A DNA stretch of 26,246 nt from positions 1 through 26,246 of the forward strand of contig JAHIEL010000087.1 in assembly GCA_018901715.1 (NCBI GenBank), given 5' to 3'. This document shows, piece after piece, positions 2 through 20,370 of this stretch (the stretch's first letter is position 1; each line of letters starts with the position of its first letter). Under the pieces are notes generated by a model. That model ran no database searches. It was not told where the DNA came from and saw nothing but the letters and a program-made list of their open reading frames with translations. The position numbers and the translations under genes are program-made. The stretch is from Patescibacteria group bacterium. GTDB taxonomy: Bacteria; Patescibacteriota; Minisyncoccia; Minisyncoccales; PEYH01.

Positions 2-1933
2 CTTTTAGTAGATGGACACTCTTTTTTCCCTTATGTCGGGCCCAAAGGGCTTTACTTGATGGGGTTAATAGAAATCGCTTTTTTCTTTTGGATTGTACTC
101 ATCTTTCATTCTCCAAAATATAGGCCAAAAATCAATGTTCTTTTATTATCTCTCTCTGCTTTTGTAATAATCTTAACCCTTGCTAGTATTTTTGGAGCTG
201 ATCCTTCTCGCAGTTTTTGGTCCAAGTTTGAAAGGATGTCTGGTCTTTTAATGTGGTTTCACCTTTTTGGATTGTTTTTAGTTTTAAGCACAACATTTAA
301 AAACCAGAGGGCTTGGCTAAGGGCTTTTGCTCTTTCTGTTGGTGTGGCTGTTTTTATTTGCCTTATGTTTTTTATGGATAAGGCGGGTCTGGGAAAATTG
401 CCAGTAGCGAAAAATGGAGCCACCCTGGGCAATAGTTCTTTTTTAGCGACTTATTTATTATTTAACCTGTGCTTTGCAATTTACATTTTTTTGACAATAA
501 ACAGAAAAAAAGAATTGAAAATTTGGTCTTTTGCCAGAGCCAAATATCCCTGCTTGATTGTATTGGCAATAGCGACTTCAGCAATGGGCGCAGCATTAAT
601 AATGAGCGGGGGATCAGCAGCCACGCTTGCTTTTTTTGGTGCTATGGGATTGATGGCGATCTTTTGGCTTGCCCTTGAGGTTAAGAAGAAATCTTTTAGA
701 ATTATTGGCAAAGCAGTTTTGGTTGTTTCAATAATAGTGTTTTTAATATCTATTATTCTCCTATTTATGCCGAATAGTATTGTCCAGCAGAAACTTGTTG
801 AAACGAGGAGTAATGCGCGACCCCTGCTTTGGCAAATAGGATTTAATGCTTTTCTGGAAAGACCGATTCTTGGTTGGGGTCCACAGAATTTTTCATTTGT
901 CTTTGATCAAAGGTTTGATCCTTGTTTCTATCTTCCAGAATGCGGAACAGAGGTTCGTTTTGATCAGGCACATAATATCATTGTTGATAATTTAGTTGAT
1001 GCCGGGATTTTAGGCCTTTTGTCTTATTTTTCTTTTCTATTTTTCGCTTGCTATATCCTGTGGAAAGATTATATCCAAAAACGATTAGGGTTTTGGGCTC
1101 CGGCTGTCTTTACTTCTTTACTTGTAGCTCATTTTGTCCAGAACCTTACGGTCTTTGATATGCCAGCCAGCTTCCTTATGTTATTCTTAGTTCTTGGGTT
1201 TTCTGGAGCTGTTGCTCAACCCTTGCTATCCAAAGACGATCAGAGGAAAAGGGGATCAGGAGTTTTCTTGGTAGTTGCAATAATAATTTTTCTATTTACT
1301 TTTTCCTCTTTTGTGTATAAGCCGTCAAAAGTTAGTTTTGGCTTGATTAATGTAATGATGGCTGACACTCAAGCTAAAAAGGAAGTTGCTTATGAGCAGG
1401 TCTTCAATTCTTCTCCAATTGGAAAGTATCAGGCGAGGACTCATTTAGCCGGGGAATTGACTAAGAACGCAGAACAAGGAAGTCGCTATTTCCTCGGAGA
1501 ATTTGATATTATTATTAGAGAATTAGAAAAAAGCATTGAATCCTCACCCTTGGACTATTTCAGCCATTTGGCTCTGGGTAAGGTTTATAATTCCTACGGA
1601 ACAATTACCGGAGGAGATAGCATTGTTAAAGCAGAAAAGGTTTTGGAAAGAGCATTGGAGTTGTCTCCATTCAAACAAGCTGGCTACTGGGAGCTGGCCA
1701 GAAGCAAGGTTTTATTGGGCAAATATGATGAATGCATTGCTTTAGTAGAAAAGTCAGTAGAATTAGAACCCATGCTTGATTATTCTCATATATATCTAGT
1801 TAACATCGCTAAAATTATTGACGATATAGACTTGGCTATTGAGAAAGCGAAGGAGGCCGTAGAAATTCTTCCTGATTTAAGGCCTCGCTTGGAAGAGATT
1901 TTAGGGATTGAGGATTTGGGGGTTGACAAATGA
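2..1933 (+). CDS. O-antigen ligase (Wzy_C/PglL-like) family membrane protein with C-terminal TPR region; 5' truncated by the window edge
   Basis: About 12 hydrophobic segments; RxxLW...GWGPQNF and AHNIIVDNLVDAGILG motifs typical of O-antigen ligase domains; TPR-like helical tail. The frame is open from position 2 (LLVDGHSFFPYVGPKGLYL), so the true start lies upstream of the window rather than at 56. Confidence 0.85.
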   Translation, partial: LLVDGHSFFPYVGPKGLYLMGLIEIAFFFWIVLIFHSPKYRPKINVLLLSLSAFVIILTLASIFGADPSRSFWSKFERMSGLLMWFHLFGLFLVLSTTFKNQRAWLRAFALSVGVAVFICLMFFMDKAGLGKLPVAKNGATLGNSSFLATYLLFNLCFAIYIFLTINRKKELKIWSFARAKYPCLIVLAIATSAMGAALIMSGGSAATLAFFGAMGLMAIFWLALEVKKKSFRIIGKAVLVVSIIVFLISIILLFMPNSIVQQKLVETRSNARPLLWQIGFNAFLERPILGWGPQNFSFVFDQRFDPCFYLPECGTEVRFDQAHNIIVDNLVDAGILGLLSYFSFLFFACYILWKDYIQKRLGFWAPAVFTSLLVAHFVQNLTVFDMPASFLMLFLVLGFSGAVAQPLLSKDDQRKRGSGVFLVVAIIIFLFTFSSFVYKPSKVSFGLINVMMADTQAKKEVAYEQVFNSSPIGKYQARTHLAGELTKNAEQGSRYFLGEFDIIIRELEKSIESSPLDYFSHLALGKVYNSYGTITGGDSIVKAEKVLERALELSPFKQAGYWELARSKVLLGKYDECIALVEKSVELEPMLDYSHIYLVNIAKIIDDIDLAIEKAKEAVEILPDLRPRLEEILGIEDLGVDK

Positions 1934-2001
1934 TAGGGTTTTTGATAAGATATAAATAATTAGTGAGTGTTCTAAACTTTTTGTTTGGAACTCCATAAAT
2001 C

Positions 2002-2033
2002 AGCAAAAGCCCCTTCCGGGGTTTTTGCTTTTT
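2002..2033 (+). terminator. Intrinsic terminator after the O-antigen ligase gene
   Basis: AGCAAAAGCCCC-TTCC-GGGGTTTTTGCT hairpin followed by a T-run. Confidence 0.75.
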
Positions 2034-2089
2034 ATTTTCTTGTATTATCCTTGACATACCACCCTGACGCGACCCGAACGAAAGACAAA

Positions 2090-2134: not shown

Positions 2135-2162
2135 TTGCACTATCCTTGACATTTGCTATCAT
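2135..2162 (+). promoter_or_regulatory. Putative sigma70 promoter with extended -10
   Basis: TTGCAC(2135-2140)-N16-TATCAT(2157-2162), TG at the extended -10 position; predicted start about 2169, where a long hairpin begins. Confidence 0.5.
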
Positions 2163-2168
2163 ATAAGT

Positions 2169-2229
2169 GGGTCTCCGTGCTGCACTCGCTAATTAGATTT
2201 ATCGGAGTTTTACGGCGGAGGCCCGTAAA
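2169..2229 (+). ncRNA. Candidate structured RNA or leader of unknown family
   Basis: GGGTCTCC/GGAGGCCC, GCTG/CGGC and ACTC/GAGT helices form a bulged rod starting 7 nt after a -10 element; an alternative 3' hairpin is possible. Confidence 0.4.
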
Positions 2230-2355: not shown

Positions 2356-3306
2356 ATGGCAGATATTAAAGAATTACTACCAGCTATAAGAGAAAATGTG
2401 TCTTTGGCTGATTACACAAGCTTCAAAATAGGTGGATGGACAAAATATTTTTTTGAGGCAAATACAAAGAACGAATTAATCAAAGCGCTAAAGGCAATAG
2501 AGCAGACAAACCTGTCTTTTTTTATTTTAGCCGGAGGAAGCAATGTCTTATTTTCTGATAATGGTTTTGATGGACTAGTCATTAAAATTCAGTTTTCAGA
2601 TTTTGAATGTCAAGATTTAGATATTTATGCCGACGCAGGCGCTAAATTATTAGATATAGTAAATTTATCTGTAGAAAAAGAACTCACTGGACTTGAGTGG
2701 GCTGCAGGCATTTACGGCACAATAGGCGGAGCAGTAAGGGGAAATGCAGGCGCCTTTAATAGTTCTATAACAAATGTTTTAAAGCAAGTAAAAGTGCTTG
2801 TTTTGCCCGATTTGAAAATTAAAAATTTTTCAAGAGATGAGTGTAAATTTGGATACAGGGAAAGCATTTTTAAAAAAAATAATAATTTAATTATTCTTTC
2901 AGCCATATTGGAACTTAAAAAAGGCAATAAGAAAAAAATCAAGGAAGAGATTGAAAATAATATTGCTTATCGCAAAGACAATCATCCTCTTGATAAGCCA
3001 TCAGCTGGTTCTATTTTTAAAAATCCTGAATTTAAAATGATAGATAAAGGGCTTTTTAAAGATTATCCTGATTTAAAAAAGTTTTCTTCAAGCGGGACAG
3101 TGCCAGCTGGTTTCCTAATTGATACAGCCGGACTTAGAGGAAAAAGAATAGGTAATGCCAAAATTTCTGAGAAACACTGCAATTTTATTGTAAATCTTGG
3201 CAAGGCGACAGCAGAAGATGTGCTCGGCTTAATAGATTTAGCAAAAGAAACAATAAGAGCGCTTTTTGGAATTGAGCTTGAGCAGGAAATTATAATCGTA
3301 AAATAG
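2356..3306 (+). CDS. murB: UDP-N-acetylenolpyruvoylglucosamine reductase
   Basis: SFKIGG, GGSNVLFSD, GLEWAAGIYGTIGGAVRGNAGA, PSAGSIFKNP, KHCNFIVN and LEQEI motifs. Confidence 0.97.
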   Translation: MADIKELLPAIRENVSLADYTSFKIGGWTKYFFEANTKNELIKALKAIEQTNLSFFILAGGSNVLFSDNGFDGLVIKIQFSDFECQDLDIYADAGAKLLDIVNLSVEKELTGLEWAAGIYGTIGGAVRGNAGAFNSSITNVLKQVKVLVLPDLKIKNFSRDECKFGYRESIFKKNNNLIILSAILELKKGNKKKIKEEIENNIAYRKDNHPLDKPSAGSIFKNPEFKMIDKGLFKDYPDLKKFSSSGTVPAGFLIDTAGLRGKRIGNAKISEKHCNFIVNLGKATAEDVLGLIDLAKETIRALFGIELEQEIIIVK

Positions 3307-3407: not shown

Positions 3408-3806
3408 ATGATTATACAAATTAAAGCCACAAATATTGAATTAAATGAATCGCTCCGGATTTTTGTTGAAGACAAGGTAGGGGAACTTAAAAAGAATTTA
3501 GTTAAGTTTGATGAGCTCCACGAAAAAGGAAGAGAAAAAGTAAATGTTCATATAGAGATAGGCAAGACCACAAAGCATCACAGAAAGGGAGATATTTTCA
3601 GGGCAGAAATTCAGGTTTATTTACCTAAGAAACTTTTAAGAGCAGTAGTTAAGGGAATTGATTTGAGAAGTGCGATCATTGAGGCAAGAGACGAGTTAGA
3701 CAGGGAAATTATAAAATATAAAGGCAAAAGATTGGTTCGGGCAAGAACATGGGCAAGAAGGGCCAAGCTTGCGAGAAGGAGTATGAGTTTTTTAAAAAAG
3801 AAATAA
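3408..3806 (+). CDS. hpf: Ribosome hibernation promoting factor / RaiA family
   Basis: IQIKATNIELNESLRIFVEDKV...FRAEI...DLRSAIIEARDELDREIIKYK fits the RaiA/HPF domain. Confidence 0.92.
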   Translation: MIIQIKATNIELNESLRIFVEDKVGELKKNLVKFDELHEKGREKVNVHIEIGKTTKHHRKGDIFRAEIQVYLPKKLLRAVVKGIDLRSAIIEARDELDREIIKYKGKRLVRARTWARRAKLARRSMSFLKKK

Positions 3807-19996: not shown

Positions 19997-20033
19997 CATC
20001 TAAAAAGCCCTCTTTTAGAGGGCTTTTTAGATG
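19997..20033. terminator. Bidirectional terminator between convergent rnhA and rnpB
   Basis: Perfect 17-bp inverted repeat CATCTAAAAAGCCCTCT-TTT-AGAGGGCTTTTTAGATG. Confidence 0.85.
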
Positions 20034-20370
20034 CCTAAGTGGCCTATAGGCCGAATTCTGTTTTAGGTGATCATCTATCTAGGCCAAGAGTTACCCCTTG
20101 GCTCGTGCGAGCTACTATATTTGCTCTTGCACCCGGGCAAGGATTTAGCCGTTTCACTCCTTGGGTTTCCCCAAAGATTCACCCCGCACATAAATTATGT
20201 GCTGGGTGCCTTTTAGCTTTCGCTTCAAGGCGTCACTGTTCGCACCTCTATCGTCACCGACGACGGGAGTTACCCGCTGCCTGTGTCAAAAAAGACAGGG
20301 TGTTCGGACCTTCCTCTCATTATCAACGCAAAGCGTTGACAAAGAGCGATCGCCTCGGCTACTTAGGCAT
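20031..20370 (-). ncRNA. rnpB: RNase P RNA
   Basis: P1 AUGCCUAAGU/ACUUAGGCAU; P4 halves GAGGAAGGUCCGAAC and ACAGAAUUCGGC; conserved regions GUGCGAACAGUGA and GUGAAACGG; UAGAUAGAUGAUC. Confidence 0.96.

Follow-up and report, generated by a model that had tools for sequence, protein, structure and literature searches.

The structured element that begins at position 2169 of the window (the whole 26,246-nt stretch of Patescibacteria DNA analysed here) has been confirmed as a genuine conserved small RNA, far beyond chance and most strongly by comparative evidence, and it has a separately encoded RNA partner with which it would form two intermolecular helices. The two elements are called RNA-B and RNA-A, respectively. 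Comparison of homologous sequences establishes the two RNA genes, their promoters, the terminator, the outer stem P1 of RNA-B, the two helices between the RNAs, which have co-evolved, and the association with murB and hpf. Control of murB–hpf by the pairing, and the direction of this control, are what we infer from them. The preferred reading, to which we give about an even chance, regards RNA-A as a trans-acting RNA dedicated to RNA-B, and the pairing of both as a means of tuning the murB–hpf mRNA in this genome.

RNA-B (2169..2224, forward strand) is contained in a 422-nt intergenic gap between the gene of a Wzy_C/TPR membrane protein, which ends at 1933, and murB. The first gene 3' of RNA-B is murB (2356..3306, forward strand), identified by the Pfam domains MurB_C and FAD_binding_4, and the second is hpf (3408..3806, forward strand), coding for a ribosome hibernation factor of the S30AE family; a PKD-domain gene and then secA come after hpf. 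The window sequence that follows P1 is GUAAAGAAAAG, and no terminator was found in the window between P1 and murB; therefore, RNA-B constitutes the 5' end of the murB–hpf mRNA. The RNA-B promoter (2135..2162, forward strand), read from the sequence, is composed of a weak -35 box (TTGCAC, 2135-2140), a TG dinucleotide (2154-2155) and a -10 box (TATCAT, 2157-2162). This extended -10 element, TGcTATCAT, is located 7 nt 5' of G2169, where the original prediction had placed the transcription start, and 83 of 91 loci carry a -10-like hexamer at the equivalent place.

RNA-B is supported by its fold, by covariation and by covariance models. P1 is formed by GGGUCUCCGU (2169-2178) with GCGGAGGCCC (2215-2224), and the conserved interior (2183-2208), which contains the inner helix ACUC/GAGU, is joined to it by the strands GCUG(C) (2179-2183) and UUUACG (2209-2214). 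The element measures about 56-60 nt and carries no ORF. The 56-nt rod originally proposed at this position is borne out by several lines of evidence. The MFE of 2169-2229 is -23.5 kcal/mol (z = -2.68), a stability reached by none of 200 shuffles. In the model alignment, double changes are found at all 11 pairs of P1, and 95.4% of the cells are paired, versus 35-56% when the partner column is slid; the covariation score of P1 was reached by 0 of 500 shuffles. In addition, the element is single copy in the relatives. A different fate awaited the 3' hairpin that had been proposed as mutually exclusive with the rod. Its pairing, UUUACGG (2209-2215) with CCGUAAA (2223-2229), is indeed present in the window, but it is not conserved: in the 11 closest relatives it is paired in 53% of the cells, which is the level of shuffled columns (383 of 500 shuffles reach it). 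Since it pairs no better than shuffles, this hairpin is a chance feature of the window's genome, and the switch between rod and 3' hairpin was rejected. Similarly, the idea of a candidate ligand was not upheld, as no sign of a metabolite ligand was seen and the conserved interior of the rod covaries with RNA-A instead.

The surroundings of RNA-B in the window are rich in repeated sequences. Two dispersed repeats (2227-2296 and 2297-2348) fill the space from RNA-B to murB; they are absent from this site in the sister genome, where the gap measures 26 nt. One repeat family is made of 14-nt units of the TGATCATTGATAATTGATCATT type, which form tandem arrays in other places (e.g., in contig C45), and the other is a GC-rich 50-nt hairpin present at no fewer than 10 further places; together, both regions have 61 matches in the 662-kb genome. 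A DNA search of this genome detected no second copy of 2130-2226, versus dozens of copies of 2227-2349. A dispersed repeat (a REP/MITE-like hairpin) was consequently rejected as an explanation for RNA-B, which is single copy, the repeats being confined to its flanks. Another GC-rich hairpin element is located between RNA-A and RNA-B (2046-2152); its hairpin (2090-2120, GCGACCCGACCUC...) has copies on other contigs and in the sister genome, and it is flanked by the direct repeat CTTG.A.TATCCTTGACAT (2039-2057 and 2134-2152). This element looks like an insertion that has duplicated part of the RNA-B promoter region.

The distribution of RNA-B was studied in genomes that are samples of their groups. 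With a first covariance model, built from 11 sequences (R1), one copy each was found in 15 of 26 genomes of the family and in 55 of 151 sampled across the order. The rebuilt model used for the class search (R2) detected one copy each in 64 of 151 genomes sampled from the class, with a single match in the window's genome. In the phylum's other classes, 144 genomes gave no match, a result that doubles as a specificity control. All 25 weak matches that were fetched also adjoin murB. Furthermore, an exact search with the 19-nt core in the genomes of 185,579 species retrieved 74 contigs, nearly all labelled Parcubacteria/Paceibacterota and including Nealsonbacteria, Tagabacteria, Terrybacteria, Wildermuthbacteria, Gribaldobacteria, Minisyncoccales and Paceibacterales. 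Homologues upstream of Patescibacteria murB and covariation among them, both envisaged in the original prediction, have thus been found.

The genomic context of RNA-B has been compared in 92 distinct loci. In 57 of them murB is found directly 3' of RNA-B and on the same strand, at a median distance of about 16 nt from the end of the model; in five, belonging to orders other than that of the window, the gene directly 3' is hpf. Ten loci have murB divergent from RNA-B, which then possesses a clean terminator of its own, with RNA-A convergent downstream. The remaining 20 show other neighbours: DUF5667 proteins, large proteins of unknown function, secA, or a terminator with RNA-B standing alone. 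In many loci of the window's order, hpf comes after murB. The common theme is the murB/hpf(/secA) neighbourhood, and RNA-B is tied neither to one gene nor to an arrangement in cis. The two roles first offered for this element, a new small RNA or a murB–hpf leader, can be judged accordingly: it is a real RNA with its own promoter and, here, the 5' end of murB–hpf, but elsewhere it stands alone or precedes hpf or other genes. The 10 divergent loci with an own terminator, together with the 20 loci elsewhere, indicate that control of murB in cis is not the sole or ancestral role.

Two particular arrangements were also observed. In one of them (L046, L049, L051, L052, L054, L078, L093, L096 and L100), RNA-B alone is inverted with respect to the usual order RNA-A > RNA-B > murB; it then diverges from murB and converges on RNA-A, and there is a terminator for each of the two RNAs. 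The other is found in one genus of the family (L012, L014, L015 and L016; e.g., L015:1359-1639, minus strand), where RNA-B is in tandem duplicate. A full copy is followed by the hairpin GRCCC-AUAA-GGGUC-U5, which uses the last bases of P1; the second copy is degenerate and has the same terminator-like hairpin. P1 and a terminator are mutually exclusive in this genus.

RNA-A was found from the flanks of the RNA-B homologues, as a second conserved unit upstream. In the window it is about 78 nt long (1958..2035, forward strand) and is preceded by a promoter (1923..1951, forward strand) consisting of TTGACA (1923-1928), a 17-nt spacer and TG plus TAAGAT (1946-1951), with 10 of 12 matches and the TG present. 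It comprises the helix-I strand AAUUAGUGAGUG (1958-1969), a variable hairpin (about 1971-1989), the helix-II strand ACUCCAUAAAUC (1990-2001), and an intrinsic terminator (2002-2029) with its U tail. The distance to RNA-B is about 130 nt in the window and about 90-330 nt in the relatives, sometimes up to about 1.4 kb. The same layout is recognized in these relatives: after the near-consensus promoter (TTGACA-N17-TGCTAnAnT), the unit starts at about (N)GUGAGUG and continues with a hairpin whose sequence varies and with a conserved ACUCYNCUAAGUCGRCA, and a strong terminator comes next. This arrangement of promoter and terminator is present in at least 48 relatives, whose 48 sequences were aligned, and also across the class. 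A sequence-only model of RNA-A (R3) matched the window at 1958-2021 and located RNA-A beside RNA-B in other orders of the class as well; it matched 22 of 151 genomes and is too insensitive for genome-wide co-occurrence, so that the co-occurrence of both RNAs comes from the flanks (77 of about 92 loci). No RNA-A came to light in the sister genome (L025) up to 1.5 kb from RNA-B. A GUG-started frame in RNA-A varies in length and content among the relatives, as judged by eye in the alignment. A type I toxin–antitoxin system was rejected, since inspection by eye revealed no conserved short ORF in RNA-A or RNA-B. The apex of the RNA-A terminator, CC(U/C)C-CUCGAGCG-AGG, is kept across many families (e.g., L040:1393-1464 and L058:735-809); this conservation exceeds what a terminator needs, and the apex may be a further recognition element. 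AAGUCGACAACAGG, the tail that RNA-A has in some lineages, resembles the 3' region of 16S; this likeness is inconsistent between families and was treated as chance.

The complementarity between the two RNAs is concentrated in two helices. An inverted repeat, I1, connects 1949-1969 to 2183-2203. Helix I, of about 9-12 bp, joins the 5' end of RNA-A to the 5' half of the RNA-B interior (UAGUGAGUG with CACUCACUA); in the window, the RNA-B site CACUCGCUAAUU (2183..2194, forward strand) pairs with RNA-A 1958-1969, at -14.4 to -16.5 kcal/mol. Helix II, of about 12-13 bp, joins the RNA-A segment that comes after the hairpin to the 3' half of the interior, its strands being ACUC-UCUAAGUC with GACUUAGA-(AUU)-GGAGU; in the window, the RNA-B site GAUUUAUCGGAGU (2196..2208, forward strand) pairs with RNA-A 1990-2001, at -11.4 to -13.2 kcal/mol. 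In 48 genomes, the duplex energies of helix I were -15.7 kcal/mol for cognate pairs, -14.2 for non-cognate pairs and -4.8 with shuffled RNA-A, and those of helix II were -14.2, -10.6 and -6.4 kcal/mol, respectively. None of 10,000 permutations of the genome labels reached the observed mean energies, a figure that is an indication and not a probability because kinship inflates the test.

The two genes show many compensatory changes in these segments. Among 77 genome pairs, nine consecutive columns of helix I are 84-100% paired, and the column beside its invariant heptamer appears as A-U in 43 pairs, U-A in 13, G-C in five and G-U in four. Helix II has a mean of 12.7 bp and -14.2 kcal/mol in these 77 pairs, and it has been rewritten by lineage with complementarity kept: GACAAAUAGA/UCUAUUUGUC, UACCUAG/CUAGGUA, AUAGAUCGG/CCGAUCUAU, CACAUAGA/UCUAUGUG and CAGAAUCGGGG/CCCCGAUUCUG are examples of this. 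The inner hairpin of RNA-B, CUAA/UUAG (P2b), was rejected, since it is poorly kept in comparison with the pairing with RNA-A; the small inner hairpin that competes with this pairing is kept in 58-73% of the cells.

All four strands involved contain the core ACUC/GAGU, and each RNA alone can close a 4-bp helix with it. In five genomes the four strands are ACCC/GGGU together, and in three genomes only the helix-II pair has changed; this pattern is compatible with a strand exchange that would convert two hairpins into a heterodimer. In the window, opening the sites costs about 5.3 kcal/mol in RNA-B and 6.2 kcal/mol in RNA-A, and the gain is -14.4 and -11.4 kcal/mol. The strands of RNA-B that would be unpaired in the complex are conserved too, (R)YAG preceding CAC and UYAAC following GGAGU. 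At their far ends, helices I and II are connected by just 1-3 nt of RNA-B, which makes the complex formally pseudoknotted and beyond standard co-folding. Judging from this geometry, the two helices may not be fully formed at once, and assembly of the complex during the transcription of RNA-B may be needed.

A mechanism can be proposed from these features. RNA-B would be a discrete structured RNA made from its own extended -10 promoter, whose variable outer stem P1 would present the conserved interior of about 26 nt as a docking site for RNA-A. The latter, transcribed and terminated separately, would bind through its 5' end (helix I) and through the segment that follows its hairpin (helix II). 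In the free state, each RNA would be a hairpin with a GAGU/ACUC helix, and the partners would be swapped in the complex, giving a four-helix junction of P1, helix I, the RNA-A hairpin and helix II; P1 would stay intact in both the free and the paired states. Binding of RNA-A would most likely tune the murB–hpf mRNA, by means of its stability or processing, premature termination, or ribosome access. Regarding the last of these, no conserved Shine–Dalgarno or start-codon occlusion near RNA-B was seen by eye in the homologous loci. Sequestration of a Shine–Dalgarno sequence by P1 (GGAGG, in its 3' strand in the window) was rejected, as P1 covaries without keeping GGAGG and the spacing to the AUG varies. 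With hpf linked to a small RNA that is strongly transcribed, a switch governed by the growth state would be plausible.

Several alternative explanations have been weighed. The one that survives best, possible but at clearly less than even probability, is that a free-standing bimolecular RNA (a protein scaffold, a two-piece ribozyme or a sensor) has RNA-A and RNA-B as its subunits and does not regulate the downstream gene; murB and hpf would just use the RNA-B promoter, as protein genes behind stable-RNA genes sometimes do. In favour of it, the promoter of RNA-A is always near-consensus and a terminator of its own is always present, and RNA-B is found in many lineages alone with a terminator or inverted with respect to murB (free-standing or inverted in about one third of the loci), with downstream genes that differ. 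Moreover, both RNAs are single copy in the genomes searched, and conservation is much higher in the helices and in the junction strands (AG preceding CAC; UYAAC following GGAGU) than in P1, which suggests a constraint beyond pairing. However, four strands that constrain one another can also yield strong conservation, as the joint changes of the ACUC/GAGU quartet illustrate. The architecture matches no known RNA, and no Rfam family either. In addition, 62 of the 92 loci have RNA-B within a few tens of nt of the murB or hpf start codon, tighter than the sharing of a promoter needs. A related and equally tentative proposal is that an obligate two-piece RNA, with its four-helix junction and conserved junction strands, is a lineage-defining component of Paceibacteria-type cells; it could serve as an RNP scaffold, as a bimolecular ribozyme, or as a sensor connected with ribosome hibernation and cell-wall synthesis, and would then differ from an ordinary pair of sRNA and target.

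We consider it unlikely that RNA-A and RNA-B are circularly permuted paralogues sharing a helix for a common RNA-binding protein, with RNA-B as a protein-binding leader and RNA-A as a decoy, so that their complementarity would be a by-product and no pairing would take place in the cell. The 5' strand of RNA-A does resemble the 3' strand of RNA-B, and vice versa, each can form GAGU/ACUC alone, and all strands of the quartet have changed jointly in five genomes; nevertheless, where the strands disagree (U,G,A,C in three genomes) it is the pairing between the molecules that is preserved, and not that within each of them. The inner pairs of RNA-B also compare poorly with helix I (58-73% versus 84-100% paired), and a fixed protein site would forbid a helix II that is rewritten in each lineage and yet remains complementary. 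Finally, a metabolite riboswitch or an autonomous transcription attenuator of murB is very improbable: the 5' leader position, the run of at least three U within 11 nt after P1 in 45 of 92 loci, and the CCC-NUAA-GGG(UC)-U5 hairpin over the 3' strand of P1 in the genus with the tandem duplication would suit it, but the conserved interior is explained by pairing with RNA-A and not by an invariant pocket, downstream genes and platforms vary between lineages, free-standing copies exist, the window has no terminator after P1 and its alternative hairpin is unconserved, and no riboswitch family is matched.

The original prediction could not match RNA-B to SRP RNA, 6S RNA, tmRNA or a known riboswitch, and no such match was obtained here for either RNA. 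A search of the window against Rfam 15 at the gathering threshold gave no match for RNA-A or RNA-B; the sole match in the window was a bacterial RNase P RNA of class A (20031-20366, minus strand, 131.9 bits). In E-value mode, the region 1900-2400 produced sub-threshold matches only, derived from terminators or GC hairpins, and 18 homologous loci (50 kb in total) produced nothing at E<=0.01. No tRNA or tmRNA was detected by ARAGORN. A 6S RNA was rejected (no match to RF00013, and wrong size and shape), and so were the cores of hammerhead, hairpin and twister ribozymes, none of which was seen by eye.

A divergent SRP RNA deserved consideration because RF00169 matches nothing in the window's genome or in 40 relatives. 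It was rejected, as neither RNA has a conserved GNRA loop with a rightly placed AGCA motif, the hairpin of RNA-A is variable, and no Ffh or FtsY was detected. As to these proteins, searches with PF02978, PF00448 and TIGR00959 found no Ffh or FtsY in the window's genome, and neither did six-frame motif scans (P-loop...DTAGR; G1-G5 order); PF00448 gave weak P-loop matches only, in 30 relatives and in 100 genomes across the phylum. Either the SRP system (Ffh, FtsY and 4.5S RNA) is truly absent from the sampled genomes or the search has missed it.

The pairing of a small RNA with a structured target is a known kind of interaction, and several systems offer points of comparison. In Vibrio cholerae, the small RNA VrrA reportedly acts on vrp, a raiA/hpf homologue, and so regulates a hibernation factor. 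What the two systems have in common is a small RNA made from its own promoter and ended by its own terminator, which pairs with the 5' region of an mRNA encoding a hibernation factor or co-transcribed with its gene. Unlike VrrA–vrp, the target here is a closed and covarying stem-loop domain, with two pairing segments and about 23-25 bp in total; besides, the small RNA gene adjoins its target, the pair is class-wide, and the target domain is also found free-standing. Another example is CopA–CopT of plasmid R1, in which a loop–loop contact progresses to a four-way junction. In both cases two hairpin RNAs would open their upper stems to form two intermolecular helices beside two retained intramolecular stems. 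However, CopA–CopT consists of two plasmid transcripts that are cis-antisense to each other and complementary throughout, whereas RNA-A and RNA-B come from separate chromosomal genes on the same strand and are complementary in part; the strand topology is also different, as the 5' segment would pair here with the 5' segment and the 3' segment with the 3' one.

Other systems are similar in position or in contact. The raiA motif RNA (Rfam) and the rmf motif are, like RNA-B, conserved structured RNAs often situated directly 5' of a raiA/hpf-family gene and sometimes elsewhere, a varied placement that makes a cis or trans role debated. In contrast to the raiA motif, RNA-B measures about 56-60 nt and not about 200 nt, belongs to a different phylum and has an RNA partner, and no sequence or structure match between both rises above noise in the E-value mode of Rfam. 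In the case of OxyS–fhlA, two separate short helices also link one small RNA with one structured target. Its loop–loop kissing contacts measure about 7-9 bp, and no conservation of such contacts throughout an entire class is known; by comparison, the helices described here are longer, have a common strand-exchange core and co-evolve class-wide.

A full-text search of the literature found no paper that describes the RNA-A/RNA-B element. What is unusual in it is the adjacent, class-wide and co-evolving module of two genes, with a two-helix architecture of the strand-exchange type. RNA-based regulation in the Candidate Phyla Radiation is almost unknown, and here a pair of small RNA genes is conserved across a class, with secondary and intermolecular structures that can be read from covariation. 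Two new RNA families are now available for annotation, along with a concrete RNA–RNA complex that can be put to the test. Members are found in genomes of Nealsonbacteria and Minisyncoccales, lineages in which enrichment or co-culture work exists. This pair is of biological significance because murB (peptidoglycan synthesis) and hpf (ribosome hibernation) are central to the decision between growth and dormancy in these host-dependent ultra-small bacteria; if the pairing of RNA-A with RNA-B tunes their mRNA, it would provide a handle on the switching between growth and quiescence in these organisms.
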